Part shown: piece after piece, positions 26,601-63,122 of the stretch
How positions within the stretch are numbered: position 1 is the stretch's first letter
How the letters are laid out: each line of letters starts with the position of its first letter
NCBI GenBank assembly: GCA_964648105.1
Contig: CAZYMH010000001.1
Span: 143,999-207,998, forward strand
DNA length: 64,000 nt
Source of the DNA: an uncultured Candidatus Saccharibacteria bacterium
Lineage (GTDB): Bacteria; Patescibacteriota; Saccharimonadia; Saccharimonadales; 2-12-FULL-41-12
Direction: 5' to 3'
Position numbers and translations under genes: made by a program
Notes under the pieces: generated by a model
The model's database searches: none
What the model saw: the letters and a program-made list of their open reading frames with translations, nothing else
Told to the model about the DNA's origin: nothing

Positions 26601-27287
26601 ATGCGAAACCAAAATAAAATAAAAATTATCAGTTACAACTTACGCTACCACCGAGCGGGCGTCGAGCTTGAAAAATTAGCCAAATCTTACGATGCCGATA
26701 TTTTATGTATCCAAGAATGTCGTGGTAGTAATTTACCAGACGAAATCGGAGATCTTATTTTGGGTGACAAAACCCCCAATTGGCGTTTGAACATTGCCGT
26801 ATACTACCGTAAAGACCGTTTTACATTAACCGAATCAACATCTTATGTCCTCAAAAAAGCCTTTTTGGAATGGCTATTTATGCCAGAAATGGAACGCTTA
26901 ATAGTCACCAAAGTATATGACCGATGGAGTCAAAAAGAAGTCTGTATTGGTGGCTTTCATGCCACAAGTCATGTGGCCACTAATTATGTTCGCAAACGCC
27001 AAATTAGTGCGGCTCACCGAGTTTTATTAGAACACAGTGAAGGTTGTCCGACAGTAATGGTTGGCGATTACAATTATTTACTATTTAAACGCGGTTTGAA
27101 AATGCGAATTGAAAAATCTGGCTACCAACTGACTCTTAGCGACCGACCAACATATTATTTCAACAAATACGTCGGTGTTAGATTTGATATGGCAACTAGC
27201 ATGAACGCCTGTATTGAAGGAGTTAAGGCTCTACCAAAAAGTAAACTGTCTGACCACACACCGATTTTGGTCCAATTGTCAGTCTAG
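26601..27287 (+). CDS. Endonuclease/exonuclease/phosphatase (EEP) family protein, cytoplasmic
   Basis: 228 aa with IISYNLRYH, ILCIQE, VGDYNY and SDHTPI motifs. Confidence 0.65.
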   Translation: MRNQNKIKIISYNLRYHRAGVELEKLAKSYDADILCIQECRGSNLPDEIGDLILGDKTPNWRLNIAVYYRKDRFTLTESTSYVLKKAFLEWLFMPEMERLIVTKVYDRWSQKEVCIGGFHATSHVATNYVRKRQISAAHRVLLEHSEGCPTVMVGDYNYLLFKRGLKMRIEKSGYQLTLSDRPTYYFNKYVGVRFDMATSMNACIEGVKALPKSKLSDHTPILVQLSV

Positions 27288-27295
27288 TACCGCCC

Positions 27296-27324
27296 TTGAT
27301 TTTTTAGTATAAAAAGTGTATAAT
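27296..27324 (+). promoter_or_regulatory. Candidate sigma70-type promoter upstream of tRNA-Lys
   Basis: TTGATT (27296-27301), a 17-nt spacer, then TATAAT (27319-27324). It lies about 65 nt upstream of the tRNA. Confidence 0.4.
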
Positions 27325-27388
27325 CCATTAAGTTGATTTTGACGATTTCTATCTGTTAAAATAATTAAATATCCATAGTAATAACTAT

Positions 27389-27464
27389 GGGCCTGTAGCT
27401 CAGTTGGTAGAGCAGTGGCCTTTTAAGCCACGTGTCCCGGGTTCGAGCCCCGGCGGGCCCTCCA
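27389..27464 (+). tRNA. tRNA-Lys (anticodon UUU), CCA encoded
   Basis: GGGCCTGTAGCTCAGTTGGTAGAGCAGTGGCCTTTTAAGCCACGTGTCCCGGGTTCGAGCCCCGGCGGGCCCTCCA. It has anticodon loop CTTTTAA and T-arm CCGGG-TTCGAGC-CCCGG. Confidence 0.9.
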
Positions 27465-27472
27465 GAATAAGC

Positions 27473-27504
27473 ACCTACTTATAATTTAAGTAGGTTTTTA
27501 TTTT
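27473..27504 (+). terminator. Rho-independent terminator after tRNA-Lys
   Basis: ACCTACTT (27473-27480) pairs with AAGTAGGT (27488-27495), followed by TTTTTATTTT. Confidence 0.7.
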
Positions 27505-27531
27505 GGAGCAAAAAAATCTTATACTTAGGCT

Positions 27532-28218
27532 ATGGCAATGAGCGTGCAACATATTGGATTAATTTTAGATGGCAATCGGCGGTGGGCCAAAAAACATGGA
27601 TTGTCGCCGATCGAAGGCCACCAAGAAGGTTACAAAAATCTCAAAACAATTGTCGAAGCTGCTTCTAAATACGACATCAAGTATATAAGTGCTTACGTCT
27701 TTTCATCAGAAAATTGGTCACGCACTAGCAGCGAAGTTAGTGGGATTATGAAAATTTTATCCTGGGTCCTAAAAAATGAGTTAAATTATTTTCACGCTAG
27801 AAATATTCGTTTACTTTTTGCTGGCCGACGCAGTCATCAAAGCCCACAACTAATCAAACTAATCCAAAATGCCGAAAACTTAACCCGAGATAATGATTTG
27901 ATAACAGTAGTCATTTGCCTAAACTATGGTGGCCAACAAGAAATCACCGATGCCGTCAAACAAATTATCGCTCAGTCTGTGCCAGAAAGCGAAATTACCC
28001 CTGAACTTATCCAAAAAAATTTATACCTACCAGACTTGCCTTTGCCAGATTTGATTATTCGCACTTCGGGCGAAAAACGGCTTAGTAACTTTTTAATTTG
28101 GCAATCAGCTTATAGCGAACTAATGTTTGTTGACAAATTGTGGCCAGATTTTACGTCAAACGATCTAAAAGATTGCCTTAATAATTACCAAAATCGATCG
28201 CGAAGATTCGGTAAATAA
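27532..28218 (+). CDS. uppS: Isoprenyl transferase / undecaprenyl-diphosphate synthase
   Basis: 228 aa with ILDGNRRWA, the SxENWxR region (SSENWSR) and IRTSGEKRLSNFLIWQ. Confidence 0.9.
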   Translation: MAMSVQHIGLILDGNRRWAKKHGLSPIEGHQEGYKNLKTIVEAASKYDIKYISAYVFSSENWSRTSSEVSGIMKILSWVLKNELNYFHARNIRLLFAGRRSHQSPQLIKLIQNAENLTRDNDLITVVICLNYGGQQEITDAVKQIIAQSVPESEITPELIQKNLYLPDLPLPDLIIRTSGEKRLSNFLIWQSAYSELMFVDKLWPDFTSNDLKDCLNNYQNRSRRFGK

Positions 28219-28255
28219 GTTTGCGGATAACCACACAACATGCTAATGTTTAGGT

Positions 28256-28603
28256 ATGAATTTATCTAAACTTTTCAGCTTCGGCAAAAAAAATAACTCA
28301 AATACATCAATGCAAGCAGGCCAACCAACGCCTCCACCAGCCAACCCAATGGCACCGAATAATCCGATGGATGCTGGTAGCCAAAATATGCCTCAAAATT
28401 CACCACCTAGTTCGGACTCTGCCTTACAACAGCCTAGTTCGGCCGAGCAAATGCAACCAACGGTTGGTCCTAGCCCAATGCCACCTGCCGACCCACAGCC
28501 AAGTGTCGATCCTAACATGCAACCACCAGTTAATAACCCTGAAGTTAGCCCACCGCCAGCAAATGACGGCGTAGTGCCTCCTCCAAACTCTCAACAACAA
28601 TAA
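28256..28603 (+). CDS. Pro/Gln/Asn-rich low-complexity protein (possible intrinsically disordered protein)
   Basis: 115-aa ORF, roughly one-third Pro, with no TM helix or signal peptide. Coding status is uncertain. Confidence 0.3.
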   Translation: MNLSKLFSFGKKNNSNTSMQAGQPTPPPANPMAPNNPMDAGSQNMPQNSPPSSDSALQQPSSAEQMQPTVGPSPMPPADPQPSVDPNMQPPVNNPEVSPPPANDGVVPPPNSQQQ

Positions 28604-28614
28604 TTAGTAAATTA

Positions 28615-29115
28615 TTATTTTTTGCCGTGTTCGTCGTGAATGTGTTTCGGCAAACTTAGCCAAGTAAAAAACAAAGCCAATAATCCACAAGCAATTATTA
28701 TAAAATTTTTGTAGCCATCTATTTGGCCATAGCTGGCAATATCTAAATTGGTTTTGATAATTGGCACCAGCTTGTATAAAAACATAGCTAATAAAATCAT
28801 CGCCACAGTTACCAAACCGACATTTATTGCTATTTTGCCTCTAGCTCGGCCTCGCAAAAACAAAATACTTAGAAGTAGTGGCAAAACCAATAAACCTATT
28901 TGGGTATTTTGATAATCACCTAGCCCACTAACTTTGGCTACAAATCCATAAATATCACTACTAACTTGACTACTAAGAATATAGCCAATTAAGACGCTCA
29001 AAACTACCGCGTGCGAAGGAACTCTAAGATACAAAATCAGTCCAATCAGCCCTAATAATACTGCTAAAACCAAAATTATTTGCATATTATACATAAGCAT
29101 AATTCTAGCACGCAT
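28615..29115 (-). CDS. Integral membrane protein, unknown function
   Basis: 166 aa with about 5 hydrophobic helices. Confidence 0.4.
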   Translation of the reverse strand: MRARIMLMYNMQIILVLAVLLGLIGLILYLRVPSHAVVLSVLIGYILSSQVSSDIYGFVAKVSGLGDYQNTQIGLLVLPLLLSILFLRGRARGKIAINVGLVTVAMILLAMFLYKLVPIIKTNLDIASYGQIDGYKNFIIIACGLLALFFTWLSLPKHIHDEHGKK

Positions 29116-29133
29116 ATCAGTAATAAAAAATTA

Positions 29134-29613
29134 TCAAAATACTAGCGTCGAGCCAATACTCATATTTTGCTGACGAGCAACACCCGCATTTACTTCTAGC
29201 ACATAACGGACATCATCTTCGCAAAAATTTTGCGGATAAGTATTGGGGCTAATATTTTCATCTAAAGAAAGAATCTTTTTATCTTTATCTAGCCAGATGA
29301 TATCCAAATTAAACTTCATATCTCTCATCCAAAAACATTGCTGGCCCGAGTTTTCAAAAACAAATAACATGCCCTCGTTAGTAGCTATTTTGTCTCGACC
29401 CGACAAACCTTTCATTCGACTCGTATCACTATTAGCAAGTTCGTATCGAATGTCACAAGAATCAAATTGACTATCAATACAATTTTTGTATCTGTTTTGG
29501 GTAATTAAGACGAAAACAAATAGACCAATTACTAATAAGCATAAAAAGACAAAGAACTTATTAAGCCCCAACGCGATCTTTTCGTCTTCGGCCTTTGGCA
29601 TTATTCTCGACAT
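29134..29613 (-). CDS. DUF192 domain protein with N-terminal anchor
   Basis: 159 aa with MKGLSGRDKIATNEGMLFVF...FWMRDMKFNLDIIWLD. The annotated start overlaps the rimK 3' end by 53 nt. TTG at 29571 would reduce the overlap to 11 nt. Confidence 0.65.
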   Translation of the reverse strand: MSRIMPKAEDEKIALGLNKFFVFLCLLVIGLFVFVLITQNRYKNCIDSQFDSCDIRYELANSDTSRMKGLSGRDKIATNEGMLFVFENSGQQCFWMRDMKFNLDIIWLDKDKKILSLDENISPNTYPQNFCEDDVRYVLEVNAGVARQQNMSIGSTLVF

Positions 29614-30463
29614 ACTCGATTATTTTCGCAGCGACATTACGTCCTGTAACTTGCTCAATACCAAAACCTGGGCTGGCATTTACTTCTAAAACTAGTGGGC
29701 CACGATCAGAACGCATCATATCAACACCACATACTGGCAGTCCCATGGCTTTAGCGGCTTTTTGAGCAGTTTTACGCTCTTCATCTGTTAACTTAATAAT
29801 CGTACCTTCGCCGCCTTGGTGCAAATTTGACCTGAAATCATCGTCCAAACTCTGGCGTTGCATGCTCGCTACTACTTTACCACCGACAACAAATGCACGA
29901 ATGTCAGTTCCAGCCGATTCTTTAATAAATTCCTGGACTAAAAAGCTTACACCTTCGACATAAAATGCTTGCATTACCGCTTGAGCAGCCTTTTTTGTTT
30001 CACCCAATACTACACCTTTGCCATGAGTACCACGGGCAACCTTAATAATAAGTGGTGTGCCACCAGCTTGTTCGATAACATCGTCCAAATCAGCAGTCTC
30101 ACGAGCAAAAACAGTCTTTGGGATACCTACACCGTAGCGAGCTAAAATCTGAACACTGCGTAATTTGTCTCGAGATCTTGAAATGGCAATCGAACTAGCT
30201 GTCGAAAATGAATTTTGAGCTTCAAATTGCCGAACAATCGATGTGCCATATTTTGTTAAGCCCGAAGCAATTCGCGGAATTATCGCGTCAAAACCAGACA
30301 AATCCTCACCGTTATAGCGAATCACAGGTATATCACGCTGAATCGTGACATAACATTTAGCATAATTAATCACCCTTACGTCATGACCACGAGTTAAAGC
30401 CTCTTCTTTCAAACGTCTCGTTGAGTAATTAGCTGCCCCTTTTGATAAAATCGCTATTTTCAT
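29561..30463 (-). CDS. rimK: ATP-grasp ligase RimK (ribosomal protein S6 / alpha-L-glutamate ligase family)
   Basis: 300 aa. N-terminus is MKIAILS...YSTRRL, with an ATP-grasp core (GTHGKGV, VQEFI). Confidence 0.85.
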   Translation of the reverse strand: MKIAILSKGAANYSTRRLKEEALTRGHDVRVINYAKCYVTIQRDIPVIRYNGEDLSGFDAIIPRIASGLTKYGTSIVRQFEAQNSFSTASSIAISRSRDKLRSVQILARYGVGIPKTVFARETADLDDVIEQAGGTPLIIKVARGTHGKGVVLGETKKAAQAVMQAFYVEGVSFLVQEFIKESAGTDIRAFVVGGKVVASMQRQSLDDDFRSNLHQGGEGTIIKLTDEERKTAQKAAKAMGLPVCGVDMMRSDRGPLVLEVNASPGFGIEQVTGRNVAAKIIEYVENNAKGRRRKDRVGA

Positions 30464-30465
30464 AT

Positions 30466-30903
30466 TTAATCGTCCTTTTTAGCTAAAGATATCCCAGAGG
30501 TTTGCTTAACGTCAACCAAGAAATTATATGTCGCCAAAAACCGCCTACCAATTAAAAGTTGCGATTTCATCTCTGATCTGTCTGCAAGTGATAATGTAAT
30601 CGGATAAATACTGCCTCGAACATTTACTTTGGTATTAATAAAATATCTATCTTGTATATGCCCATTAGAGCTTTTCACACGCCCAGTCTTAAATTTATCT
30701 GCTTTATGCACAACTTCTGGGTGATCGAATGGCGAAAAAAACAAAACTTGTTTGCCATTTTTCTCATCCAGATGAATATTAGTACTATGCAATGCTCCTG
30801 TATATGCACCAGTATCAATTTTGGCTTTAATCCCGAGATTATCAAATTCAGGAAAAATTACATCTTCTACTATTCCGATTATTTTTAAATTGTTCAAATC
30901 CAT
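30466..30903 (-). CDS. Retropepsin-like 'ATP-dependent zinc protease' (DUF785/RimB-like) partner of RimK
   Basis: AKIDTGAYTGALHS motif. ATG at 30903 (MDLNNLKIIG...) is preferred over the track start at 30942. It sits 2 nt from rimK. Confidence 0.6.
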   Translation of the reverse strand: MDLNNLKIIGIVEDVIFPEFDNLGIKAKIDTGAYTGALHSTNIHLDEKNGKQVLFFSPFDHPEVVHKADKFKTGRVKSSNGHIQDRYFINTKVNVRGSIYPITLSLADRSEMKSQLLIGRRFLATYNFLVDVKQTSGISLAKKDD

Positions 30904-31158
30904 ATAAAAACAAATTATAGTACTTTTTGAGTAAAAAATCAATAATCATACAGTCTCTGCTTCGTTAGCCATTTTTGGCTTTTACTCTCATGTAGGCCAG
31001 GCCGACTACTACAACAATTAATACGACCATTATTACAATCATTGTTATAAAGCCTGATTCGTTTTTTTGTTTGTTCATAACTGACAAATATTATACCTAT
31101 GGAAAATTATTTTTCTAGTTTTTTGCACAAGCAGTTTGCATAAAATTTTTGTGTGTGT

Positions 31159-31371
31159 TATTTTTTAATCATTAATATACTAATATAAAAAGAATTAAAG
31201 GTTATGAAAAAGAAAACAACTCGTTCTAGAAGCAAAGTCAATTTGTTTCAATCAAATAGTCAAAGAAAAGGTGTCGGTAGAAAGTCTCTTTTTTTTGGTT
31301 CTAAGTTAGTTATGCTAGCCACCATGGTAGTTATTGTCGGTGTGGTATTGGGGGCTTTTGCTATATTACAG
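31159..31371 (+). repeat. Repeat A copy 1 (213 bp: 45 bp upstream region plus first 56 codons)
   Basis: Base-for-base identical by eye to 32993-33205 (offset 1834 bp). Confidence 0.9.
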
Positions 31372-32907
31372 AAGTCTAGAGGGTCGAATGCGGCGGTAGG
31401 CGATGTAGTGCCTGTCAACTGTAGTAAAACTGTTAGTGGTGGAGCCAGTGTGGCATCATCAATCAGTGGAATGGCTAACGGGCAAACTCTATGTCTAAGT
31501 GGCACATTTAATATGGGTGCAGTCAAAGTCAGCAATAGTGGCATTACAATTGCTTCAACACCTGGTCAACAGGCTACTCTTAATGGACAATTTAATATAA
31601 GTGGTAGTAATAACAAATTTTTGAACCTAAAAATTGATGGCCGTGGTGTGAACTCAGGTACAATCTTGCTTTATAGTGGAGCAAATAACAACTTATTTAA
31701 AGCTAATGACGTTACATCGACTGCTCCTAACAAATCTTCGACAGACCAAAACGACCGACAAGGAATTTGCTTTAACATCGGTGAATCTGGTGCTGTAGCT
31801 GCCTCTGGTCCTCAAAACACCACAATCGAACAAAACAGAATATTTAACTGTGGTTGGGGCAAATATGACCAAGCTCTATACCTTGCAGGTGCAAGATACA
31901 CTCGAGTAGTCAATAACTTTATATACGACAACCCAATGTTCGGTTTGCAGTTCTTCCCTGATAGCGATAATGCGACAGTTGAAAATAACGTGTTTTACAA
32001 CAACGCTGCTGGAGTTACATTCTCTAGTGGATTCGGCAAACAATCTGAAAATAACATTCTTCGAAATAATATTATCGGCAACAGCGGTGGCAACTACTAT
32101 GGTATGGGCTACAAAGACTCTACCTCTTGGGGTGCAGCCGATGTTAATCACTGGTGGGGTTCAGGTACAGGTGCTGGCAACCAAGCAACTGGTAACTGTC
32201 TATTTGGTAGAGGCATAGAAAGTAATCCTGACGGCTACACAGTAAGTAATAATACTAAAGTTAGTGACCCTATGTTTATCAATGCTGGTGGCAAAGACTT
32301 CGGCTTAAAAGCTGGCAGCCCCTGCACTGGCAAAGGTATCCAAACTTCATCATCGACTAATCCAACTAGCACAAGTCCCACTCCAACCCCTACCTCGCCA
32401 ACTACGACTTCTCCAACACCGACTACACCAACTCCTACAAGTCCAACTCCACAATCTCCAACAGGCAGTCTAAACTTCAAAAACTTCACACCTTGGACAG
32501 CTTATGAAGGTTACGACTTAAAGAATGATGGTAAGACTATAACTAGAAATAACACCGATACTTTACTAGTAAAGTACAACAAAGGTACTTGGGCTAATGG
32601 ACATTATGGTGGTTACTGTATAACTCGAGCTGCTGGTAGTCCTCAACCTAAGTCAATCACCTTTACTGCTGAATACAACAGTTGGGGTGGCAACAGTGTC
32701 TACTTCTACCCTGGAAGTTCTAACAATAAGAAATGGGTAGTTGGTAATACTTATGGCGTAACCAAGAAGAGTACTCAAACAGTTACTTTAGGTACAGAGA
32801 CCAAATACTGTTTCGGTAACGTAGTTAACTTCCCAAGTGGTGCAGCCTTCTCAAGCTTTGACAACGACAGGTTCCTAAAAGTTACTGGCTATACCTTCAA
32901 TTACTAG
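31204..32907 (+). CDS. Secreted/anchored right-handed beta-helix (PbH1-repeat, pectate-lyase-fold) protein with P/T linker and unassigned C-terminal domain
   Basis: 567 aa. A basic tail plus TM signal anchor comes first. It is followed by repeated NN-I/V-x-x-N beta-helix rungs (VVNNFIYDN, VENNVFYNN, LRNNIIGN). Next is a TSPTPTPTSPTTTSPTPTTPTPTSPTP linker, then a ~145-aa C-terminal domain ending TGYTFNY. Confidence 0.7.
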   Translation: MKKKTTRSRSKVNLFQSNSQRKGVGRKSLFFGSKLVMLATMVVIVGVVLGAFAILQKSRGSNAAVGDVVPVNCSKTVSGGASVASSISGMANGQTLCLSGTFNMGAVKVSNSGITIASTPGQQATLNGQFNISGSNNKFLNLKIDGRGVNSGTILLYSGANNNLFKANDVTSTAPNKSSTDQNDRQGICFNIGESGAVAASGPQNTTIEQNRIFNCGWGKYDQALYLAGARYTRVVNNFIYDNPMFGLQFFPDSDNATVENNVFYNNAAGVTFSSGFGKQSENNILRNNIIGNSGGNYYGMGYKDSTSWGAADVNHWWGSGTGAGNQATGNCLFGRGIESNPDGYTVSNNTKVSDPMFINAGGKDFGLKAGSPCTGKGIQTSSSTNPTSTSPTPTPTSPTTTSPTPTTPTPTSPTPQSPTGSLNFKNFTPWTAYEGYDLKNDGKTITRNNTDTLLVKYNKGTWANGHYGGYCITRAAGSPQPKSITFTAEYNSWGGNSVYFYPGSSNNKKWVVGNTYGVTKKSTQTVTLGTETKYCFGNVVNFPSGAAFSSFDNDRFLKVTGYTFNY

Positions 32908-32992: not shown

Positions 32993-33205
32993 TATTTTTT
33001 AATCATTAATATACTAATATAAAAAGAATTAAAGGTTATGAAAAAGAAAACAACTCGTTCTAGAAGCAAAGTCAATTTGTTTCAATCAAATAGTCAAAGA
33101 AAAGGTGTCGGTAGAAAGTCTCTTTTTTTTGGTTCTAAGTTAGTTATGCTAGCCACCATGGTAGTTATTGTCGGTGTGGTATTGGGGGCTTTTGCTATAT
33201 TACAG
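32993..33205 (+). repeat. Repeat A copy 2
   Basis: Identical to 31159-31371. The encoded N-termini are identical for 56 aa. Confidence 0.9.
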
Positions 33206-34468
33206 CATTCAAGAGATTCTAAGGCAGCGACAGGCATGATTCTCAACATACCATTTGATACTGACTTTTCTGGTCAGGGTTTACAACGAGTGTCATCTGA
33301 CAGACTACGGATTGTTTCTCAAGCGGATAATGGCGTAAAGCCTGTGCAAGGTGCTGGTATGGCTCGTATTGAACTCCGAAAGGGAGATAATCCACTAGCT
33401 CAGTGGTGTTGTGCTAATACTGCTAGAAGTGAGTTTACTACTCAGACTAACGAACAGAAGGGTGAGAATCGTTGGTACTCTTGGTCATCAATGTTTGATC
33501 CAACCTTCCCAAGTTATCCAACTCAACCGGCAAATGGTGGCTGGCAAATATTCTTACAGTGGCATGGTAATGACAGTGTATCACCACCAATGGCCTTCTT
33601 TGCCTCCAATGATAATATTGCTCTTGGGGTAAGTGATGGTTCTAGATGGAATTACTATTGGCAAGCTCCCATGAATCGTGGTTCATGGCACAACTTTAAA
33701 ATGCACGTAACCTGGGGAGACTCAGGAAGAATTGAACTATGGCATAACGGTAGTAAAGTACTAGATAAGTCTGGGGTTGATAACATTACTAGTCCTCCAC
33801 TATATGTAAAAGGCGGTATGTACAGAAATGATGATTTAGCAAAGACAGCTATTTTATATATGGATAGCTTTAAGATGGCTTGGGACGAAGCATCGCTTGG
33901 TAGTGTACCAACTAATAATACTGGTACACCAGTTGTACCTACGCAGACCGCACCAGCTCCTACACCCACAGTAGAGACCAACACTGCTAGTCCTAGCCCA
34001 GCTCCTACACCCGTAGCGACATCATCTACACTTGCTCCCAACGACTGGTCAAAATGGGAAAAAGGCGAAGGAGTGGTTAACAGTACAGTTTCAACACCCA
34101 TGACACTAAGTAACAGCAGAAATCTTTTGGTACAATTCGATAGCAACAAAAGGGGTTATAAATCCAATCAATATGGCAGATATTGTATTGCACGACCAGC
34201 CGGGTCAGCAGTTCCTAAATCTATAACCTTCACAGCTAATGTAAACGCGAAATATGGTAACACAGTTTACTTCTATGCAGATGATTCTGATAAGAAATTA
34301 TGGACTATAGATAATACTGGCGGTAAAACACAGTCAAAGACCGCAACAGTTACTCTTGGTCAACAGTCTAGATACTGCTTTGGTAATGTATCGATTCCAA
34401 GCTTTGGTAATAGTACATATGGCAGCAGTCGGTTGATTCAGGTCACCAACTATAAATTTAACTACTAA
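33038..34468 (+). CDS. Secreted/anchored concanavalin-like polysaccharide lyase-family (PF14099-like) protein with P/T linker and C-terminal domain homologous to that of 31204-32907
   Basis: 476 aa. The core contains WYSWSSMF, WQIFLQWHG, SWHNFKMHVTW..G.IELWHNG and YVKGGMYR, typical of the heparin-lyase-like/PL20-type fold. The C-terminus carries YCIARPAG...SITFTA...YCFGNV...VTNYKFNY. Confidence 0.65.
   Translation: MKKKTTRSRSKVNLFQSNSQRKGVGRKSLFFGSKLVMLATMVVIVGVVLGAFAILQHSRDSKAATGMILNIPFDTDFSGQGLQRVSSDRLRIVSQADNGVKPVQGAGMARIELRKGDNPLAQWCCANTARSEFTTQTNEQKGENRWYSWSSMFDPTFPSYPTQPANGGWQIFLQWHGNDSVSPPMAFFASNDNIALGVSDGSRWNYYWQAPMNRGSWHNFKMHVTWGDSGRIELWHNGSKVLDKSGVDNITSPPLYVKGGMYRNDDLAKTAILYMDSFKMAWDEASLGSVPTNNTGTPVVPTQTAPAPTPTVETNTASPSPAPTPVATSSTLAPNDWSKWEKGEGVVNSTVSTPMTLSNSRNLLVQFDSNKRGYKSNQYGRYCIARPAGSAVPKSITFTANVNAKYGNTVYFYADDSDKKLWTIDNTGGKTQSKTATVTLGQQSRYCFGNVSIPSFGNSTYGSSRLIQVTNYKFNY
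33188..33946 (+). repeat. Repeat B copy 1 (759 bp, lyase-like core)
   Basis: Base-for-base identical by eye to 34673-35431 (offset 1485 bp). The out-of-frame track ORFs 33411-33632 and 34896-35117 are identical, which corroborates this. Confidence 0.9.
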
Positions 34469-34564: not shown

Positions 34565-36370
34565 ATGAAATCCAATAGTCAACAAAAAGGTGTAGGCAGA
34601 AAATCCCTACTATTTAGCTCCAAATTAGTAATGTTGGCTATGGCATTAATAATTATTGGTGCAGCCTTTGGAGCTTTTGCTATATTACAGCATTCAAGAG
34701 ATTCTAAGGCAGCGACAGGCATGATTCTCAACATACCATTTGATACTGACTTTTCTGGTCAGGGTTTACAACGAGTGTCATCTGACAGACTACGGATTGT
34801 TTCTCAAGCGGATAATGGCGTAAAGCCTGTGCAAGGTGCTGGTATGGCTCGTATTGAACTCCGAAAGGGAGATAATCCACTAGCTCAGTGGTGTTGTGCT
34901 AATACTGCTAGAAGTGAGTTTACTACTCAGACTAACGAACAGAAGGGTGAGAATCGTTGGTACTCTTGGTCATCAATGTTTGATCCAACCTTCCCAAGTT
35001 ATCCAACTCAACCGGCAAATGGTGGCTGGCAAATATTCTTACAGTGGCATGGTAATGACAGTGTATCACCACCAATGGCCTTCTTTGCCTCCAATGATAA
35101 TATTGCTCTTGGGGTAAGTGATGGTTCTAGATGGAATTACTATTGGCAAGCTCCCATGAATCGTGGTTCATGGCACAACTTTAAAATGCACGTAACCTGG
35201 GGAGACTCAGGAAGAATTGAACTATGGCATAACGGTAGTAAAGTACTAGATAAGTCTGGGGTTGATAACATTACTAGTCCTCCACTATATGTAAAAGGCG
35301 GTATGTACAGAAATGATGATTTAGCAAAGACAGCTATTTTATATATGGATAGCTTTAAGATGGCTTGGGACGAAGCATCGCTTGGTAGTGTACCAACTAA
35401 TAATACTGGTACACCAGTTGTACCTACGCAGCCACCGCCACAGCAGCAACAACGTAAACCTTACCTAGGCAATAATTGGCCGATACCTGGCAAGATCGAA
35501 GCTGAAAACTACGACGAAGGTGGTGAGGGTGTAGCTTATCATGATTTGAGTTCTTCAAATCAGGGCGGCAAATATCGTTCTGACGGGGTAGATATAGAAA
35601 ATTCTAGCGAGGGAGGCTTTAATGTTGGGTGGAACGAACCAGGTGAGTGGCAAGAATATACAGCTAACGTACAGGCTGGCAAATACAACATAGACATGAG
35701 AGTTGGATCAGCTATTGCTACAGGTAAAATCACCTTAAAACTAGACGGTACAACAATCGCAACTGCCAATATTCCTAACACTGGTGAGTGGCAAAAATAC
35801 CAAACAATTAGCTTACAAAATATTAGCCTACCTGGAGGCAATGGTAAAAAACTACGAGCTGAGGTAACAGGCTCTTCCTATACACTTAATTGGATAAACT
35901 TTAGTCTGGTCTCTTCTAGCCAACAGCCGGGAGGACCTATTACACCGCCAACAACTCCACCAAATAACCCAACCAATCCAAGCTCGGTTCCACTTGTTAC
36001 TATTGCTGGATCAGGGGTTAATAAAATTGTACCTATACCCAATACAGTCAAACCTAACCAGTCTGGACAATTCATTGCTGATTTTGATGGTGATGGTAAT
36101 AATGATGTAGCAGTCGATATAAATGGTGACGGCAACATCGATACTTCCTCTGAGCTAATCACCAACTTTGATAACCAATATGATAGCCCGCAAATTGTTC
36201 AAGGTGAAAAAATACCAAATAATTATATTGATATTGGTATTGGCCCACTGCCCGAAACAAAAGTATCTAAAAAGTTACTTTACTTATTTGCAACTATTCA
36301 AGCCCTATCTCTAACTGCATTTTCAGCAAAATTATATTCACAAAAATTAGCAAGATTAATCAAGTCTTAA
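34565..36370 (+). CDS. Anchored polysaccharide lyase-family core plus CBM6-like carbohydrate-binding module, P-rich linker and C-terminal hydrophobic tail
   Basis: 601 aa. The core is identical to 33038-34468. It is followed by GKIEAENYDEGGEGVAYHDLS...GEWQEY...GEWQKY (CBM6/35-type), then PGGPITPPTTPPNNPTNP, then DGDGNNDVAVDINGDGNID (a Ca-binding-like loop). The C-terminal hydrophobic segment is LLYLFATIQALSLTAF. Confidence 0.65.
   Translation: MKSNSQQKGVGRKSLLFSSKLVMLAMALIIIGAAFGAFAILQHSRDSKAATGMILNIPFDTDFSGQGLQRVSSDRLRIVSQADNGVKPVQGAGMARIELRKGDNPLAQWCCANTARSEFTTQTNEQKGENRWYSWSSMFDPTFPSYPTQPANGGWQIFLQWHGNDSVSPPMAFFASNDNIALGVSDGSRWNYYWQAPMNRGSWHNFKMHVTWGDSGRIELWHNGSKVLDKSGVDNITSPPLYVKGGMYRNDDLAKTAILYMDSFKMAWDEASLGSVPTNNTGTPVVPTQPPPQQQQRKPYLGNNWPIPGKIEAENYDEGGEGVAYHDLSSSNQGGKYRSDGVDIENSSEGGFNVGWNEPGEWQEYTANVQAGKYNIDMRVGSAIATGKITLKLDGTTIATANIPNTGEWQKYQTISLQNISLPGGNGKKLRAEVTGSSYTLNWINFSLVSSSQQPGGPITPPTTPPNNPTNPSSVPLVTIAGSGVNKIVPIPNTVKPNQSGQFIADFDGDGNNDVAVDINGDGNIDTSSELITNFDNQYDSPQIVQGEKIPNNYIDIGIGPLPETKVSKKLLYLFATIQALSLTAFSAKLYSQKLARLIKS
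34673..35431 (+). repeat. Repeat B copy 2
   Basis: Identical to 33188-33946. Confidence 0.9.
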
Positions 36371-51917: not shown

Positions 51918-52961
51918 TTGAACAACATTGAATTTTTATCAAAACAAGCATATTTCCACGACGTAACTTCTCGTATTGCTAAATGTCAAAAGGGTGATTG
52001 TGTAGCTCTTGCTACTATGAATATCGACACGGGCGATTTAGTTACCGACTTATTTTTGGCACTCCAAACTGCTAGCCAAAAAGGAGCCGACATCTACCTC
52101 GCTTACGATGCCTATAACTACATTTCTTTCAACAAAAAAATACCTGGACCACTGTTTTTTAATACCAAAATGCCAAATAAAGTCGGCAAATTTTGGTCTA
52201 GATTATTTTCATCACTACAAAATTTAGAAACAGCTGGAGTCAAACTCAGCCTGACCAACGTACCAAAAAAACGTTTTTCAAGCCCATTTGGTGGTCGTTC
52301 ACATATCAAATATTGCCTAATCAACGACACCGTCTACATCGGTGGCTGCAATATATCTAGCACCCGAGACATTGATATAATGGTCAAAATTACTGACCCA
52401 AAACTAGCAAAAATTATTAAAGATTTAGCGATTGCCACACATAAAAATCCTAATATGCAAGAAGTGATTGGTAATGATAAGGCCATAAAAATTAATAATG
52501 ATTTAGACCTCCTATTAGATGCAGGTTACAAACATCAGTCGCTTATTTATGAAACTGCAAAAACGTTAATTACCTCAGCTACCAAAAATATTTTTATGAC
52601 TTGCCAATATTTCCCTAATAGCACAACTGCACAGCTGCTTGGGCGGGCAGTTAAAAATAGGATAGACGTAAAATTAATATTTAACTCGCCATTTAAGCAT
52701 GTTTTCCCGATATCAATTGTGCATTTTTTGGTCAAAAAATATGAACAACTTCGCTCACCTAAACAACTATTTTCTGGTCAGTTGCCCAGCAAAACTAATT
52801 TTATTCATGCCAAAGTGTTAATTAACGAAAAACAAGCTTTGGTTGGTTCTCATAATTATGTTAAACCAGGGGTAGATTTTGGTACTGCCGAAATTGCCTT
52901 GCATTTCAAGACAGCAAAATATAATCAATCGATCATTGACTGTATTAACAAACAAAAATGA
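51918..52961 (+). CDS. Phospholipase D superfamily protein with two HKD motifs
   Basis: 347 aa with HIKYCLINDTVYIGGCN and HAKVLINEKQALVGSHN. It has no TM helix. The TTG start lies 9 nt after the tRNA, so the true start is uncertain. Confidence 0.7.
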   Translation: MNNIEFLSKQAYFHDVTSRIAKCQKGDCVALATMNIDTGDLVTDLFLALQTASQKGADIYLAYDAYNYISFNKKIPGPLFFNTKMPNKVGKFWSRLFSSLQNLETAGVKLSLTNVPKKRFSSPFGGRSHIKYCLINDTVYIGGCNISSTRDIDIMVKITDPKLAKIIKDLAIATHKNPNMQEVIGNDKAIKINNDLDLLLDAGYKHQSLIYETAKTLITSATKNIFMTCQYFPNSTTAQLLGRAVKNRIDVKLIFNSPFKHVFPISIVHFLVKKYEQLRSPKQLFSGQLPSKTNFIHAKVLINEKQALVGSHNYVKPGVDFGTAEIALHFKTAKYNQSIIDCINKQK

Positions 52962-52989
52962 GCCTTTAAATACAAGACTCATTAGAGTT

Positions 52990-53015
52990 TTAAGCCATTT
53001 AAGCCATTTAAGCCA
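52990..53015. repeat. Tandem 9-bp repeat TTAAGCCAT, about 2.9 copies
   Basis: TTAAGCCAT TTAAGCCAT TTAAGCCA, read directly. It lies at the start of a ~650-bp ORF-free tract. Confidence 0.8.
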
Positions 53016-53613
53016 AGCTATGATAGAACTAAACTTGCTTTAATAAGGCGTCTACTTTGTGCAGAGCTGGATTCTCTGTCTCCGAGAATTCGTATGACAT
53101 TACAACTGATTTCATAATTTTTGTTTTTCCTTTTCTTTCATGAGTAGTCGAGAAGTTTGCAATTATTTTTACATAACGCAAACTTCTCTTTTAGAAGAGT
53201 TCCTCATGTTTTATCAACTTCTTACGAATGCTAAAGGCCAAATTTCTATCTTGTAGCTAAAAGCTAAAGAAGAGAATTAATTTAGTAGCAAAAACCGCAA
53301 AATTACTACTAAAATTGCTTGAAGCCCAATATAAATATTTGGCTAGCTAAGAAATTGGTGTTGATATTTTTGTTTTAGTCGACTAACACTTACTATTATA
53401 CACAAAAAGAGAAAAATGTCAAGTATCAAAAACCGCAAAATGATACTTAAACGCTGTATATAAATCGTATTTTATTTTTATTTTTGTTTTTGTACGACTA
53501 CACCCCTAGTTTAATAAAGCTTAATCATTTTTGCAAGCAAAAAATAAAATAACTTTTCCACCGTTTCAAATCTTATAAAATATCTAAATCAATGTTTGGA
53601 CGATTTTTATATA

Positions 53614-53874
53614 CTATTTTTTCTTGTGAAGACTAAGTGCCAAAATTATTTTTAGTACCAAATAAACAAAGCTTCCAGCAATCACGGCAAATACAAATGA
53701 GACAAGCAAATTGGAATCTTCAAACTGTTCTCGGTCATAAATATACAGGTACACTTTATACAAGCCCAGACAAAGCACCCCACCAACTATGGCCAATGAG
53801 ACTAAGCTTTTTCTAACAAACTCGCTAATCCTCGGCATAAAATAAACTATACAAGCCAATATCAATAACCTCAA
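53614..53874 (-). CDS. Small membrane protein (3 TM helices)
   Basis: 86-aa ORF made of hydrophobic helices with a C-terminal HKKK. Confidence 0.4.
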   Translation of the reverse strand: MRLLILACIVYFMPRISEFVRKSLVSLAIVGGVLCLGLYKVYLYIYDREQFEDSNLLVSFVFAVIAGSFVYLVLKIILALSLHKKK

Positions 53875-53914
53875 CCAATAAACCTAACATTTGCTCTTTT
53901 TCTTCGTAAAAAAA

Positions 53915-54097
53915 ACAAAAACCTATCCGAAGGATGGGATCTTGTTATGCGAAAAGGGGGCAGGACTCGGTCACCTTCGGCGACCCCGTCGCAACTTCTT
54001 TGCAAAACCAGTTTGCAAGAGTTGTCTCCCTTGCAGACTGCCACTGGCAGTCTTCACCTGCGACCTTTTTTGCGTCGGAGATTCGAGCCTGACTCCG
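53915..54097 (-). ncRNA. Candidate structured RNA / tRNA-fMet-derived element (unknown class)
   Basis: This GC-rich island has open ORFs in several frames, which are artefacts. It contains the tRNA-fMet 3' half (53956-53969 = 54144-54157; 54056-54067 = 54159-54170) split by an 86-nt insert. The insert carries perfect hairpins, for example AGACUGCC-AGU-GGCAGUCU and UUGCAAA-CUGG-UUUGCAA. The element ends in a CCCAUCC-UUCG-GGAUAGG hairpin plus U-run at about 53915-53945. Strand assignment is tentative. Confidence 0.35.
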
Positions 54098-54129
54098 TAC
54101 AAAAACAAAACTCCAGACAAGCTGGAGTT
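54098..54129 (-). terminator. Hairpin terminator directly after tRNA-fMet (could act on both strands)
   Basis: AACTCCAG (54109-54116) pairs with CTGGAGTT (54122-54129). The minus strand reads a TTTTGTTTTTG run after it. The plus strand reads CTATTTTT. Confidence 0.6.
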
Positions 54130-54136
54130 CTATTTT

Positions 54137-59079: not shown

Positions 59080-60777
59080 TTAGCGACCAGCTCGTCTGGA
59101 TCGAATAGCTTTCATAATTTCGTGTCGCCATTCGTATAATGCATAGCCAAGTGCCAAGCCGATGATCCCACCAATTAATAATTTATTGCTAGGTTTGGCG
59201 GCGGCTGGAATATCTTTTACTTCTGGTCGAGCGAGGGTATTTGCTCCTAAAGTAGAGGCAATTTTGCGGCAACGATTAGTCTCGGGGTTTCGCTCTTCAC
59301 CTTCACTACAAGGCTTAAGTTCAGCAGAAGCAGTCGAGACGATACTACGGCAACGATTAGTCTCGGGATTGCGTTCTTGACCATCTTTACAAGGTGTAAG
59401 ACCGCTGATGATGGCAATTTTACGGCAGCGATTGGTGTCAGGATTACGAATTTCGTCGTCGGCACACGGTTTTAGTTCTTGATCATCGTTAGCAATTAAC
59501 TTACATCTGTTAGTTTCGGGGTTGCGATATTGATTAGCGTCACATGGTACTAAGTTAGCCGAACTGTCTCCATTGTCAGAAGTTGACGGTTCAATCAAGC
59601 TAGCTAAGTTAAGACCAGCTGGTGTTGGACGGTTAGTATACTGCCATACATCATTTATTAAGGCCCAAGTCTGGTCATCTTTCGGCGAGCTATAAGTATC
59701 CGTTTCACTAACTACTTGGCCTGCAGGACTTATCAATTTTAAGCTCGCCGTAGAATTTGGCAAAGTTATGTCAGTTAATATATCGCTAAAAATATTGTAG
59801 CTAAGTGGACTCAAAAACTGTGGCTTAAACACATAGCTTTTAGGTGAGGAGGTATCGAGATTAAGCGTATAACCAGCAATATCAACTGTATGTTGATTAG
59901 GGTTATAAATTTCGACAAATTCATGACCAGTATCAACTCCACTGGCATTTGGTAAGAGTTCAGTAATCAGCAGTTTAGAATTTTCTTTCGGGATAATTTT
60001 TTGACATGTTTGATCGTCAGTCAGCTCATAACCTTCGGGCAGGCTAGTTTGAAGACCATCAATATTTTGGCAAATATCTTTTATGCACTCGTCATTTATA
60101 AGCTGATAGCCGCCTGGGAGGCTTAATTGAACGCCCGCTAGATTGCTACATAAATCTACCTCAACAACTTGTTCATAAATCCCCGAAGCAGGAATTTCGC
60201 TAATAATTTTTGAGGAAAAATCTTGCTGATTATTTTCTAAATCTTGCAAAAATTGACTAGAAGTAATTGGTTTTCTGACCAACATTTGCCCACTGACGTG
60301 AGCGTCACTAGCGACACTTTCAGGGCTAACTGCGGTTGTCCCCCAAGCTAATTTATCGATTTCTTTTTTGGTGGCATCTAGCAAGCGTACATGCCCAGCT
60401 GTACTACTCATACCAGCTGAAAATGTTTTATCAGCTGTAAAACCAGCAGTGCCACTAATAAATTCGTTGCTGGCGAATCTAGCATACGAGAATTTACTTA
60501 AAATTAATTTAGTATTTGCGTCAGCTGATTCTAGGCACGCTAAATTAGTTTTGGTGACATCACTGGCCGATGAATATTGCAAGCACCAGCCAGTTATATC
60601 AATATCTTGATCAGAATTATTATAAATAGCTACAAATTCGCTTTTGGCTACTTGAGTGGTACCTGTATTAAGATGAGAGATTACTGGTTTAGCTCCTAGA
60701 GCCTTTACCGACGACGGCCATAAAAGCATTGCAGTGGCTAGCCCCACCACGAGCCTAAACAGTCGCTTTTGTCCCAT
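59080..60777 (-). CDS. Secreted, C-terminally anchored protein with two lamin-tail domains (LTD) and four Cys-pair repeats
   Basis: 565 aa with a signal peptide. The LTD signatures are EFVAIYNNSDQDIDITGWCL and LLITELLPNASG..HEFVEIYNPNQHTVDIAGYTL. Two C-x-N-[LI]-x-G-[VL]-Q-x-SLP-x-GY units are present. Four repeats of C-x6/7-RNP[ED]TNRC follow. The C-terminus is a TM helix plus a basic tail. Confidence 0.7.
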   Translation of the reverse strand: MGQKRLFRLVVGLATAMLLWPSSVKALGAKPVISHLNTGTTQVAKSEFVAIYNNSDQDIDITGWCLQYSSASDVTKTNLACLESADANTKLILSKFSYARFASNEFISGTAGFTADKTFSAGMSSTAGHVRLLDATKKEIDKLAWGTTAVSPESVASDAHVSGQMLVRKPITSSQFLQDLENNQQDFSSKIISEIPASGIYEQVVEVDLCSNLAGVQLSLPGGYQLINDECIKDICQNIDGLQTSLPEGYELTDDQTCQKIIPKENSKLLITELLPNASGVDTGHEFVEIYNPNQHTVDIAGYTLNLDTSSPKSYVFKPQFLSPLSYNIFSDILTDITLPNSTASLKLISPAGQVVSETDTYSSPKDDQTWALINDVWQYTNRPTPAGLNLASLIEPSTSDNGDSSANLVPCDANQYRNPETNRCKLIANDDQELKPCADDEIRNPDTNRCRKIAIISGLTPCKDGQERNPETNRCRSIVSTASAELKPCSEGEERNPETNRCRKIASTLGANTLARPEVKDIPAAAKPSNKLLIGGIIGLALGYALYEWRHEIMKAIRSRRAGR

Positions 60778-60817
60778 TAGTCAACATTATCAATAAATAA
60801 TATTTATTTATCAATAT

Positions 60818-62296
60818 TTAGTTGTAAAAAATATCTAACTGGTTAGAATTTTTATAAAACTTATGTTTGGTAATTTTCCTAAAAATTAACACCGTTAATA
60901 TAATCAAAATATAGCCCAGCAACATCTGCAAAAATGACAACTTTATTTCACTCATCGAGTGCGGTAAACCAGCTAAATAATTTATAACTTTGGTGCAATA
61001 AAGCAGAATTATTTCGGCTGGTAAATGAGCTAAACTAGCCATAAACGGCAAGACTAAGCTTAAGATTCCCCCAACAAAAAGTAGCAACATAGCTAGTGGC
61101 ACCGCAGGCAAAATGAGTATATTAGCTAGCAAAGCATAGACAGACGTATAGTTAAAGACGTGCAAAATTAATGGCAAAGTCATAATCTGAGCCGACAAAG
61201 TCGAGATTATCAGTTCTCTGAAATAAGAGATTTTGTCTACTTTACCCCAAAAGAAGTTATGAATTAATGGTGCCAAAACCAAAATTCCAAAAAATGCCAA
61301 AAACGATAAATACCAACCTAAATCACCCCATGAATAACTCGGTTTAATCAACAATGTTAAACCAGCCGAGATAGCCAAAATCATCAATGGATTAATCCGC
61401 CTACCGTAGTACCAAGCAAGCAATGATAAGCCAGCTACTAAGCCTGCTCGGACCATCGAAGCACTAAATCCACTGACCAAAATAAACCCAAATATCATAC
61501 CAAACGAAGCCAGACTGGCTAGATATTTAGACAAATTCTTAAAAATTCGTCGAGCGAAAATCACTAAAATTGTTAAGTTGTAACCACTTGCCACTACTAC
61601 ATGGGTAAGCCCTAAAATCCTGATTTGATTATCGAGTAATTCTGGTAAGTTAGTTTTCATACCGAGTAAATAACCAAGTCCTAAACTTCGCTCAGGCTCT
61701 GACAATTTACCAGCACTTAGCCCGGCGAACCAATCACGAGTTTTTAAGCCCCTATCACTGCTACTAGCTGGTTGATAATCAATAATCTCTGCTCGATAAA
61801 CACTGCCAAAGTAACTGCCAAAACCTGGACCCAATTTGCCTTTTATCACCAAAAAGTCACTACGCTTCAAATTATGATTTGTACTTAAGCTTACATAAAT
61901 ATTTCCTTTTATCACCAAACTATTAACTTTTGCATTAGTTAATTTAATGGTTTTTTCACCTTCTTTGCCAATATCAACATCCTCGGCAATTTGTCCACTT
62001 ATTACAATTGTTTTTTGATAATATTTACTTAACTGGTGTTTGTTATTTGTGTATATGTTTCCTCTATAAAATCCCAAAACTATGCCGCATACGCAGATTA
62101 CAACCACCAAAAATTTATAATGCCAGATCAAACTAACTAACCCCAAACAAGCAACAAAATATATCAACAAATTTGAAAAAGTAAATTGAAATTTCATGCT
62201 CAAAAAAACTCCGCTAATTACACCCACAAAAAAGCCAAAAATTAAGTAATACAAATGAACTTTAGTTTTGAGAAGCGGGTACTGTTTCTTGAACAT
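60818..62296 (-). CDS. comEC: DNA internalisation channel ComEC/Rec2, short form (DUF4131 plus Competence domain, no metallo-beta-lactamase domain)
   Basis: 492-aa polytopic protein. An OB-like insert follows the first TM helices. The GLTHVVVASGYNLTIL motif belongs to the Competence domain. The ORF ends without the ~250-aa MBL nuclease domain. Confidence 0.8.
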   Translation of the reverse strand: MFKKQYPLLKTKVHLYYLIFGFFVGVISGVFLSMKFQFTFSNLLIYFVACLGLVSLIWHYKFLVVVICVCGIVLGFYRGNIYTNNKHQLSKYYQKTIVISGQIAEDVDIGKEGEKTIKLTNAKVNSLVIKGNIYVSLSTNHNLKRSDFLVIKGKLGPGFGSYFGSVYRAEIIDYQPASSSDRGLKTRDWFAGLSAGKLSEPERSLGLGYLLGMKTNLPELLDNQIRILGLTHVVVASGYNLTILVIFARRIFKNLSKYLASLASFGMIFGFILVSGFSASMVRAGLVAGLSLLAWYYGRRINPLMILAISAGLTLLIKPSYSWGDLGWYLSFLAFFGILVLAPLIHNFFWGKVDKISYFRELIISTLSAQIMTLPLILHVFNYTSVYALLANILILPAVPLAMLLLFVGGILSLVLPFMASLAHLPAEIILLYCTKVINYLAGLPHSMSEIKLSFLQMLLGYILIILTVLIFRKITKHKFYKNSNQLDIFYN

Positions 62297-63041
62297 TTTT
62301 TACTTCGATTACTAATGGTAGTTGCTGGTCAGGACAGTCGCTGAGGACACGTTTCATAGCGTCTTTTTCGGCGTCAGTTAGCCATAGTTCATACTTTTTC
62401 TTAACTGCAATTTGTCGAGCCACATACATACAGCGATAACTTTTGTTAGGTGGCAACCAACTAGCGGCATCAGAGCTACTCTTATCTTGATTTGTTTGAC
62501 CGTCGACTGCCAACAAATTAAGCATGTCATTTGCGAACTCACTTCGTTTTTCAAAACTCAAATTTTGAGCACCTTTTTGCCAAGCATCGCTTAAGGCTAC
62601 AACGTGATCTATTTGAATATCATCACTAGTTTCTGGACCTCGCTGAAATTGAATCATTTTGGCGGTGTATGGGTCATTTAAAACACCTGATAAAACCGTA
62701 CAATCTTTGTACGACTTAGTTACCACATTTATCATATCTCTTTTGAGAACATAATTTCGTGTATCACAACCAATCAGCTTCTGCCAGCCATCGCCGAACT
62801 GCGAACGTTTGTAATCGGTTTTTGGCGATCGACCTTTAACCACGAGTTGGCTTAAAATATCACTAGCTTTTTCAGTTTTTATATCTTTGATCGATTGTTC
62901 AGTTTGCTTTATTACCGTACTAGTCGAGTCGGCATTTGGACTAGCAGGATTTCTCTCCATGTAATATTCGTAGGCATAGCCTCCAACCGCCCAGAGTAAC
63001 AAAAAAATCACAACCGCCACCCTGCGAAACCGATAATTCAT
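62262..63041 (-). CDS. Membrane-anchored/secreted His-Me finger nuclease (DUF1524, GmrSD C-terminal-like)
   Basis: 259 aa with an N-terminal TM helix. Motifs are DIQIDHVVALSDAWQKGA and LLAVDGQTNQDKSSSDAASWLP. It overlaps the comEC start by 35 nt. Confidence 0.7.
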   Translation of the reverse strand: MNYRFRRVAVVIFLLLWAVGGYAYEYYMERNPASPNADSTSTVIKQTEQSIKDIKTEKASDILSQLVVKGRSPKTDYKRSQFGDGWQKLIGCDTRNYVLKRDMINVVTKSYKDCTVLSGVLNDPYTAKMIQFQRGPETSDDIQIDHVVALSDAWQKGAQNLSFEKRSEFANDMLNLLAVDGQTNQDKSSSDAASWLPPNKSYRCMYVARQIAVKKKYELWLTDAEKDAMKRVLSDCPDQQLPLVIEVKNVQETVPASQN

Positions 63042-63122
63042 AATTTATAGTTATTATAGAGCAAAAATATTTTTTAGCTAAAATCTCAGTTATTTTTAAG
63101 CAGATTTTATATAATTAATTAT

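Follow-up and report, generated by a model that had tools for sequence, protein, structure and literature searches.

A conserved Saccharibacteria gene cluster of a predicted surface nuclease, a ComEC without its nuclease domain and a lamin-tail protein

Three adjoining genes encode a nuclease, ComEC and a lamin-tail protein

We analyze here three adjoining genes in a 64,000-nucleotide stretch of DNA (the window) from an uncultured Candidatus Saccharibacteria bacterium (GenBank assembly GCA_964648105.1, contig CAZYMH010000001.1, positions 143,999 to 207,998), all named relatives of which are Saccharibacteria/Saccharimonadales. The genes are consecutive minus-strand open reading frames (ORFs) and encode a predicted membrane-anchored His-Me finger nuclease of the DUF1524 (GmrSD_C) family (62262..63041, 259 aa; ORF and Pfam), the competence protein ComEC (60818..62296, 492 aa; ORF, Pfam, NCBIfam and alignment to solved ComECs) and a surface protein with lamin-tail domains (LTDs; 59080..60777, 565 aa; ORF, Pfam and an AlphaFold2 (AF2) model compared with Foldseek). 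Gene calls made independently in two other assemblies gave identical products of 259, 492 and 565 aa. As shown below, the three genes constitute a conserved Saccharibacteria envelope gene cluster.

The 3' end of the nuclease gene and the start of comEC overlap by 35 nt (62262..62296, minus strand), which is a translational-coupling geometry: comEC begins with an ATG 35 nt before the end of the nuclease gene, and no other start codon precedes His14, a residue that is nearly invariant. comEC and the LTD gene are separated by an AT-rich spacer of 40 bp (60778..60817, minus strand) in which a promoter/terminator scan found no terminator. The spacer carries a promoter-like TTGATA-17-GATAAT, at best a possible promoter, since shuffled sequence has such sites at least as often as this region. 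On the other side of the unit, a divergent intergenic region of 81 bp (63042..63122) lies between the nuclease gene and a response-regulator gene and contains a TATAAT about 15 nt upstream of the nuclease ATG; this is the likely promoter region of the three genes, which are bordered by the divergent response regulator/histidine kinase pair and by a convergent gene for a DinB-like polymerase. The cluster is probably one transcription unit, and the promoter/terminator scan points weakly the same way. An earlier note, made from the sequence of the window, had described the three minus-strand genes with these coordinates, domains, overlap and spacer, and ORF calls, Pfam and the sequence itself confirm the description.

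ComEC ends before the metallo-beta-lactamase domain

Pfam identifies in ComEC the Competence domain (PF03772; E=1.8e-38; residues 210-472, nt 60881..61669) and the DUF4131/OB-fold domain (PF13567; E=6e-9, 36.2 bits against a cut-off of 31.6; residues 43-156, nt 61829..62170), and returns no match to a Lactamase_B/metallo-beta-lactamase (MBL) domain. Among the NCBIfam models, the protein passes the N-terminal ComEC model TIGR00360 (65 bits, cut-off 36.5) and fails the full-length ComEC/Rec2 equivalog TIGR00361 (26.9 bits, cut-off 190). Aligned to solved ComECs, a profile of the lineage covers residues 215-487 of one of 801 aa and residues 41-474 of one of 827 aa; because the alignment stops there, the window protein ends where the solved ComECs run on into the beta-lactamase-like domain. 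It therefore has the OB/DUF4131 and Competence domains in common with the full-length ComEC/Rec2 proteins of B. subtilis and Moorella but is without their C-terminal beta-lactamase-like nuclease domain of about 300 residues, as the earlier note had observed. By homology, the 492-aa ComEC is a single-stranded DNA import channel of the type found in the Candidate Phyla Radiation (CPR), composed of an OB fold and a channel domain.

The earlier note took the truncated ComEC as the sign of a 'minimal' module, which overstates the case: all 120 ComEC homologues among the matches listed (about 425-517 aa) have the same MBL-less architecture, and the ComEC-MBL fusion is essentially absent from the CPR (Méheust et al., 2019, PMC6744442). 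More broadly, about half of all ComEC proteins are without the nuclease domain (PMC8579336), and a DUF4131 plus Competence profile was found in 14 of 51 known transformable strains (Pimentel and Zhang, 2018, PMC6299819). How the non-transforming strand is removed when ComEC has no C-terminal nuclease domain is a question that the field calls open, the only separate nuclease known for strand degradation being EndA (Silale et al., PMC8579336).

The upstream gene encodes a predicted tethered extracytoplasmic nuclease

Residues 93-231 of the nuclease match PF07510 (GmrSD_C/DUF1524, E=1.1e-24), the sole Pfam domain of the protein. The family is strongly conserved, with homologues at 55-83% identity. 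Across 24 aligned homologues the columns of the catalytic His-Me core, QIDH146...N175...N184 (residues 143-187; 62481..62615, minus strand), are invariant, and so are four cysteines (92, 114, 204, 236) that fit extracytoplasmic disulfides. An N-terminal signal-anchor (residues ~8-30; 62952..63020, minus strand) is evident in the alignment and coincides with a helix spanning residues 2-30 of the AF2 model; because an Arg-rich stretch precedes it, the protein is predicted to be oriented N-in with the catalytic domain outside the cell. The hydrophobic N-terminal segment was found in 18/20 genome and 8/8 metagenome nucleases linked to comEC and in most unlinked copies, and the anchor and catalytic motif are retained in every genomic context. 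The idea that the transmembrane (TM) anchor might distinguish the nucleases linked to comEC was rejected, since unlinked copies carry it too.

The AF2 model (mean pLDDT 80) has as its closest solved folds Vvn and the EndA proteins of V. cholerae and V. salmonicida, all endonuclease I (probability ~1, E ~1e-3, TM-score 0.33-0.43). Likewise, the DPAM assignment in Table S2 of Wang et al. (2023, PMC10633639) places SEML1_0519, the S. epibionticum member of the family, in the endonuclease I fold. The likeness is at the fold level: Pfam gives no match to Endonuclease I (PF04231), and a PDB sequence search returned no match at E<=1. The endonuclease I enzymes (Vvn, V. cholerae Dns/EndA, E. coli EndoI) are His-Me nucleases that act independently of sequence, contain disulfides and are secreted or periplasmic, and sequence and model suggest that the window nuclease resembles them in this, although they are soluble and it is TM-anchored.

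A second comparison is with EndA of S. pneumoniae, a separate membrane-anchored His-Me finger nuclease at the outer face of the membrane that breaks down the non-transforming strand as its partner strand enters through ComEC (PMC8579336). The window nuclease would share this design, as predicted from its TM helix and His-Me fold. The two differ in family, as EndA is an Endonuclease_NS protein (PF01223, group 5) and the window enzyme, for which PF07510 is the only Pfam match, belongs to group 3 (groups as in PMC5714182). They differ also in setting: endA is not adjacent to comEC, and pneumococcal ComEC keeps an MBL-like domain that the window ComEC is without.

The DUF1524 domain is also common to the type IV restriction and defence nucleases GmrSD, BrxU and SspE. 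Unlike the GmrSD type, the 259-aa window nuclease has no DUF262/ParB-like NTPase domain in Pfam and is predicted to be extracytoplasmic; given these features and a PADLOC match that is marginal (HEC-05, E=0.0026), a role in defence was rejected. The best-supported description is of a tethered, non-specific, disulfide-stabilised extracytoplasmic DNase, its topology being predicted. Alignment, AF2 model and fold match allow the extracytoplasmic role beside ComEC that the earlier note had proposed, and the enzyme may promote uptake (EndA/NucA-like), serve feeding or limit uptake (Dns/EndoI-like).

The downstream gene encodes an acidic lamin-tail surface protein

The LTD protein matches only one Pfam family, with two LTD stretches (PF00932, E=1.6e-21). 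From the N-terminus it comprises a signal-type segment, LTD1 (residues ~28-150), two cysteine motifs, LTD2 (~263-385), cysteine repeats and a TM helix, in agreement with the signal peptide, two LTDs, repeats and C-terminal anchor of the earlier note. The two motifs, C-x-N-[IL]-x-G-[VL]-Q-x-S-LP-x-GY, lie between the LTDs (residues ~195-260; 60000..60200, minus strand) and four C-x6-RNPETNRC-[RK]-x-I hairpin repeats follow LTD2 (residues 412-506; 59260..59544, minus strand). The TM helix (residues 532-549; 59131..59184, minus strand), recognized in the sequence and the AF2 model, is followed by a basic cytoplasmic tail. Both types of cysteine motif hardly vary among the LTD proteins of Saccharibacteria, and species have from 0 to 5 RNPETNRC-like repeats. 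Neither type matches a Pfam family, TNFR_nem remaining below threshold.

In the AF2 model (pLDDT 79), the lamin A/C and B1 Ig fold was matched at TM-scores of 0.6-0.73 (Foldseek, target-normalised), and a PDB sequence search gave no match. No DNA-binding module was recognized by sequence or fold (Pfam, PDB, Foldseek), and the ComEA-type HHH_3 domain is absent (Pfam). On the model of the extracellular nuclease ExeM (NF033680) the protein scores 17.6 bits against a cut-off of 1300, and it is without the catalytic domain. The ectodomain is strongly acidic, with a net charge of -24 in the window copy and medians of -28 and -21 in homologues of the two locus types defined below; its membrane-proximal cysteine-repeat module is mostly basic (medians +5 and +11) and is neutral in the window copy.

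LTDs recur on extracytoplasmic, membrane-associated DNA-handling proteins, where they are fused to a ComEC-type MBL domain (ComA-like proteins of haloarchaea), to a thermonuclease of the SNase family (Hvo_1477) or to OB and endonuclease/exonuclease/phosphatase (EEP) nuclease domains (ExeM). In the window, unlike in these proteins, the LTDs are encoded by a separate gene adjoining comEC.

Gene order around comEC is conserved in Saccharibacteria

We surveyed 80 species-representative comEC loci, the best 80 of 539 relatives. Conserved synteny, on which the earlier note had let its proposal depend, is found at both junctions: an LTD gene lies downstream of comEC on the same strand in 63 of the 68 loci with enough downstream sequence, and 26 of 74 evaluable loci have the nuclease gene immediately before comEC in the same orientation. 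The comEC-LTD half of the triad thus holds widely and the nuclease half in a minority of Saccharibacteria. In the linked loci the nuclease gene and comEC commonly overlap, by 4, 11 or 32-35 nt. As for the LTD gene, it directly follows comEC in 18 loci, is separated from it by one gene in 38 and lies at 1.5-4 kb in 7. The single intervening gene of the 38 loci is yebC (YebC/PmpR); we had considered this gene of about 840 bp as a second nuclease and rejected the idea on identifying its product.

Two arrangements can be distinguished. Type A is nuclease-comEC-LTD, as in the window, and includes all 18 loci in which LTD directly follows comEC. Type B is comEC-yebC-LTD-ruvC-(PBP)-ruvA-ruvB, where PBP is a penicillin-binding protein gene, as in Nanosynbacter and S. 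epibionticum. In a neighbour-joining (NJ) tree of ComEC, type A is spread over several deep branches, on either side of the midpoint root, and type B is concentrated within one large clade. The flanks of type A are highly variable, with 15 families of upstream neighbours in 26 loci and 19 families of downstream neighbours in 22; because these flanks change while nuclease-comEC-LTD persists, the triad appears to be kept as a unit. A small clade departs from this order: two of its loci (L020, 7466..9405; L026, 5321..7281) have genes for a fructose-1,6-bisphosphatase-like and a class I aldolase-like protein between comEC and LTD, and the nuclease-comEC pair is retained despite the insertion.

The window itself contains a second relevant neighbourhood. 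The block at 22278..30942 consists of minus-strand genes for RimK, DUF192, a small membrane protein, YebC, an S51 peptidase, RuvC, RuvA and RuvB, with a plus-strand tRNA-Lys (27389..27464) ahead of yebC. This is a type-B neighbourhood (compare L037, L042, L045 and SEML1_0770-0779) without comEC and LTD, which are found 35 kb away, either relocated or retained together. Since the block has neither gene, comEC and LTD stay paired in two otherwise different places.

We also surveyed 80 metagenomic loci anchored on the nuclease, 74 of which were evaluable. In 25 loci a divergent M1 metallopeptidase gene precedes the nuclease, often with NusA downstream, precisely as at SEML1_0519 in S. epibionticum. 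About 20 loci, with a GC content of 60-76%, probably come from Actinobacteria. In a tree of the nuclease domain, linked and unlinked low-GC copies interleave and high-GC copies cluster apart; the interleaving argues for one orthologous Saccharibacteria nuclease family that has changed position more than once. The high-GC homologues (L092, L110, L124 and about 17 others among L081-L160) raise the possibility of transfer across phyla, between lineages of epibionts and of hosts; Actinobacteria are the host phylum of cultivated Saccharibacteria.

A literature search found no report that joins DUF1524 with ComEC, and the only study of LTD together with ComEC is haloarchaeal and unrelated. The conserved, translationally coupled nuclease-comEC pair and the still more conserved comEC-LTD pair are thus new here, being unreported in the literature searched.

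The three families in transformable S. epibionticum

S. epibionticum is naturally transformable and deletion of its comEC abolishes transformation (Wang et al., 2023, PMC10633639). Strain ML1 shares all three families with the window: a ComEC (SEML1_0777) that is an orthologue of the same MBL-less architecture, a two-LTD protein (SEML1_0775) and a DUF1524 His-Me nuclease (SEML1_0519). The gene orders differ, with comEC-yebC-LTD-ruvC in S. epibionticum as opposed to a nuclease gene that overlaps comEC, and yebC and ruvC 35 kb off, in the window. In Table S2 of Wang et al. (2023), no ComEA Pfam domains are listed and the only MBL-domain protein is RNase J.

The transposon sequencing (Tn-seq) calls for P0/P1/P2 in Table S1 of the same study separate the LTD protein from the others. 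ComEC, DprA (SEML1_0298), the DUF1524 nuclease and YebC (SEML1_0776) are called non-essential at all three points. SEML1_0775 is called non-essential, then essential twice, its insertion sites falling from 53 in the input to 1 at T2 and its normalised reads from 450 to 104 to 13. Polarity is an unlikely cause, because insertions in yebC, directly upstream of the LTD gene, are fully tolerated; those in ruvC also outlast the LTD ones, though an essential PBP gene downstream of SEML1_0775 leaves polarity some room. Since SEML1_0775 is essential and ComEC is not, the LTD protein would serve a need in epibiotic growth that is independent of ComEC.

Other features of the window

Beyond the cluster, the window carries recA/recX and a type IV pilus block, in which a domain scan confirmed N_methyl pilins and PilB, PilC and PilM were recognised by eye. 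The scan covered 39 less obvious ORFs, some 20 others having been recognised by eye as housekeeping genes; no ComEA-type (HHH_3/SLBB), DprA or ComF domain was found among the 39, in line with the earlier note, which had seen no ComEA in the window, nor in the 10 kb past the window end.

Three further candidates of nuclease superfamilies are present (353..1363, minus strand; 26601..27287 and 51918..52961, plus strand), namely two EEP-family proteins, one with an N-terminal hydrophobic segment, and a phospholipase D (PLD)-like protein with two PLDc_2 stretches. All three bear on any model of nucleic-acid scavenging and could be redundant with the DUF1524 enzyme.

Three secreted paralogues with near-identical N-termini are encoded on the plus strand (31204..32907, 33038..34468, 34565..36370), and the last two share an identical block of about 330 aa. 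With right-handed beta-helix, polysaccharide lyase (PF14099) and carbohydrate-binding (CBM6/CBM35) domains, they look like surface enzymes for glycan degradation that arose by recent tandem duplication. In addition, a GC-poor region of about 1.2 kb beside a tRNA-Met (52962..54136) has no convincing ORF and, apart from the tRNA, no Rfam match at E<=0.1. Finally, a 520-aa protein (2863..4425, plus strand) has a P-loop-like GRKGAGKT motif and no Pfam match at E<=0.001.

Discussion

That the nuclease is an EndA-like partner of the MBL-less ComEC is a reasonable and plausible hypothesis on the sequence and model evidence, and we advance it tentatively as the likeliest of the readings considered. 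Under this hypothesis, type IV pili would bring double-stranded DNA to the cell surface, and the tethered nuclease would cut it and/or degrade the non-transported strand at the membrane, a step that would correspond to the job of EndA in S. pneumoniae and of the MBL domain in full-length ComECs. ComEC would then import the remaining strand for ComFC, DprA and RecA. The following evidence supports the hypothesis. First, the ComEC is without an MBL domain next to a nuclease that is predicted to be extracytoplasmic and has an endonuclease-I-like fold. Second, the upstream, overlapping linkage recurs in deep lineages while the flanks shuffle. Third, an MBL-less ComEC orthologue is required for transformation of S. 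epibionticum, where the only listed MBL protein is RNase J.

Several observations weigh against this hypothesis. Linkage of nuclease and comEC is the minority arrangement, about two thirds of the sampled comEC loci being without it, and comEC lies downstream of the nuclease in just 9 of the 74 nuclease-anchored metagenomic loci. In transformable S. epibionticum itself, SEML1_0519 is unlinked, about 245 kb off beside the M1 peptidase. The TM anchor is equally common in unlinked copies and thus not specific to linkage, and close homologues with 55-64% core identity occur on the high-GC, probably actinobacterial contigs. Moreover, Vvn, Dns and EndoI are reported to lower transformation, not to promote it (PMC5714182). 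The surveys have limits as well: frequencies at comEC loci are biased towards relatives of the window genome because the 80 most similar of 539 were taken, and the trees are crude NJ trees.

The strongest of the alternatives, which we nevertheless consider rather unlikely, is that the nuclease is a general surface enzyme feeding on extracellular or host nucleic acids and merely co-expressed with comEC; there would be no hand-off to the channel, and the nucleotides or nucleosides released would enter by other routes. An endonuclease-I-like fold suits such an enzyme, as do the many genomes in which the family lies apart from comEC, next to an M1 peptidase or NusA gene, and its copies on high-GC contigs. 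Saccharibacteria cannot make nucleotides (PMC6744442), and the EEP-family and PLD-like proteins provide the window with more candidate surface hydrolases. Feeding leaves unexplained, however, why a tight overlap with comEC recurs amid changing flanks, and the nuclease is non-essential in S. epibionticum co-culture. The earlier note had itself proposed nucleic-acid scavenging for the whole set of genes including the pilus block. This is weakened because S. epibionticum grows without com genes, comEC, comF and dprA being unnecessary for its growth (PMC10633639).

The hypothesis of an EndA-like nuclease can be extended to the LTD protein in two ways, and we give little credence to either. The first is that the DUF1524 enzyme is a separate, evolutionarily independent EndA-like nuclease for MBL-less ComECs and that the LTD protein forms part of this apparatus at the surface, for instance by placing DNA or the nuclease at the channel where a lineage has no ComEA; we think this improbable as a whole. 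The second, which was the proposal of the earlier note and seems to us just as doubtful, is a self-contained uptake module in which the nuclease stands in for the MBL domain and the LTD protein for ComEA, as surface DNA receptor. The comEC-LTD linkage is the strongest signal in our surveys, extending over two genomic contexts, and ComEA is annotated in just 31% of CPR genomes, for which some other DNA binder has been proposed (PMC6744442); the S. epibionticum annotation table likewise has none. The fusions of LTDs to ComEC-type MBL domains, thermonucleases and EEP nucleases fit a receptor too. Deletion of the LTD from ExeM slows DNA degradation in vitro but hardly changes it in vivo, where the domain is thus dispensable for degradation of extracellular DNA. 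The receptor role is weakened further by the acidic ectodomain, by cysteine repeats that are neutral in the window copy, and by the lack of any match to a DNA-binding module in sequence or fold. In addition, the Tn-seq calls make the orthologue of S. epibionticum essential after T0, polarity being an unlikely cause, but not comEC, dprA or the nuclease gene. We therefore describe the LTD protein as a co-inherited envelope partner of comEC with a role broader than transformation, and do not commit it to DNA reception.

It is likewise unlikely that the adjacency is historical and without shared function, the LTD protein being an adhesion or envelope protein and the nuclease a gatekeeper or an unrelated enzyme: small genomes, the type-B position of the LTD gene inside a yebC-ruvC-PBP-ruvA block of unrelated functions, an essentiality that differs from that of comEC and the restriction of transformation by endonuclease I relatives would all agree with it, but the triad is retained though both flanks vary widely, the start/stop overlaps are conserved and comEC and LTD are found together in two otherwise different neighbourhoods.

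Overall, the interpretation of the earlier note is partly supported. The 'minimal module' and the LTD protein as DNA receptor exceed the evidence and are in part contradicted by the published Tn-seq data.

The cluster offers concrete candidates for two gaps named in print, the strand-degrading nuclease of MBL-less ComECs and the DNA binder of lineages without ComEA. S. epibionticum offers a direct test of the EndA-like hypothesis, being transformable and having a published quantitative transformation assay (PMC10633639); its DUF1524 gene is non-essential, so that a knock-out should be feasible. Even if the EndA-like role proves false, a conserved surface nuclease and an essential LTD protein will have been mapped on the epibiont cell surface. 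If it is true, the nuclease would represent a second type of competence nuclease and would help to account for the way in which a large share of bacterial diversity takes up DNA.

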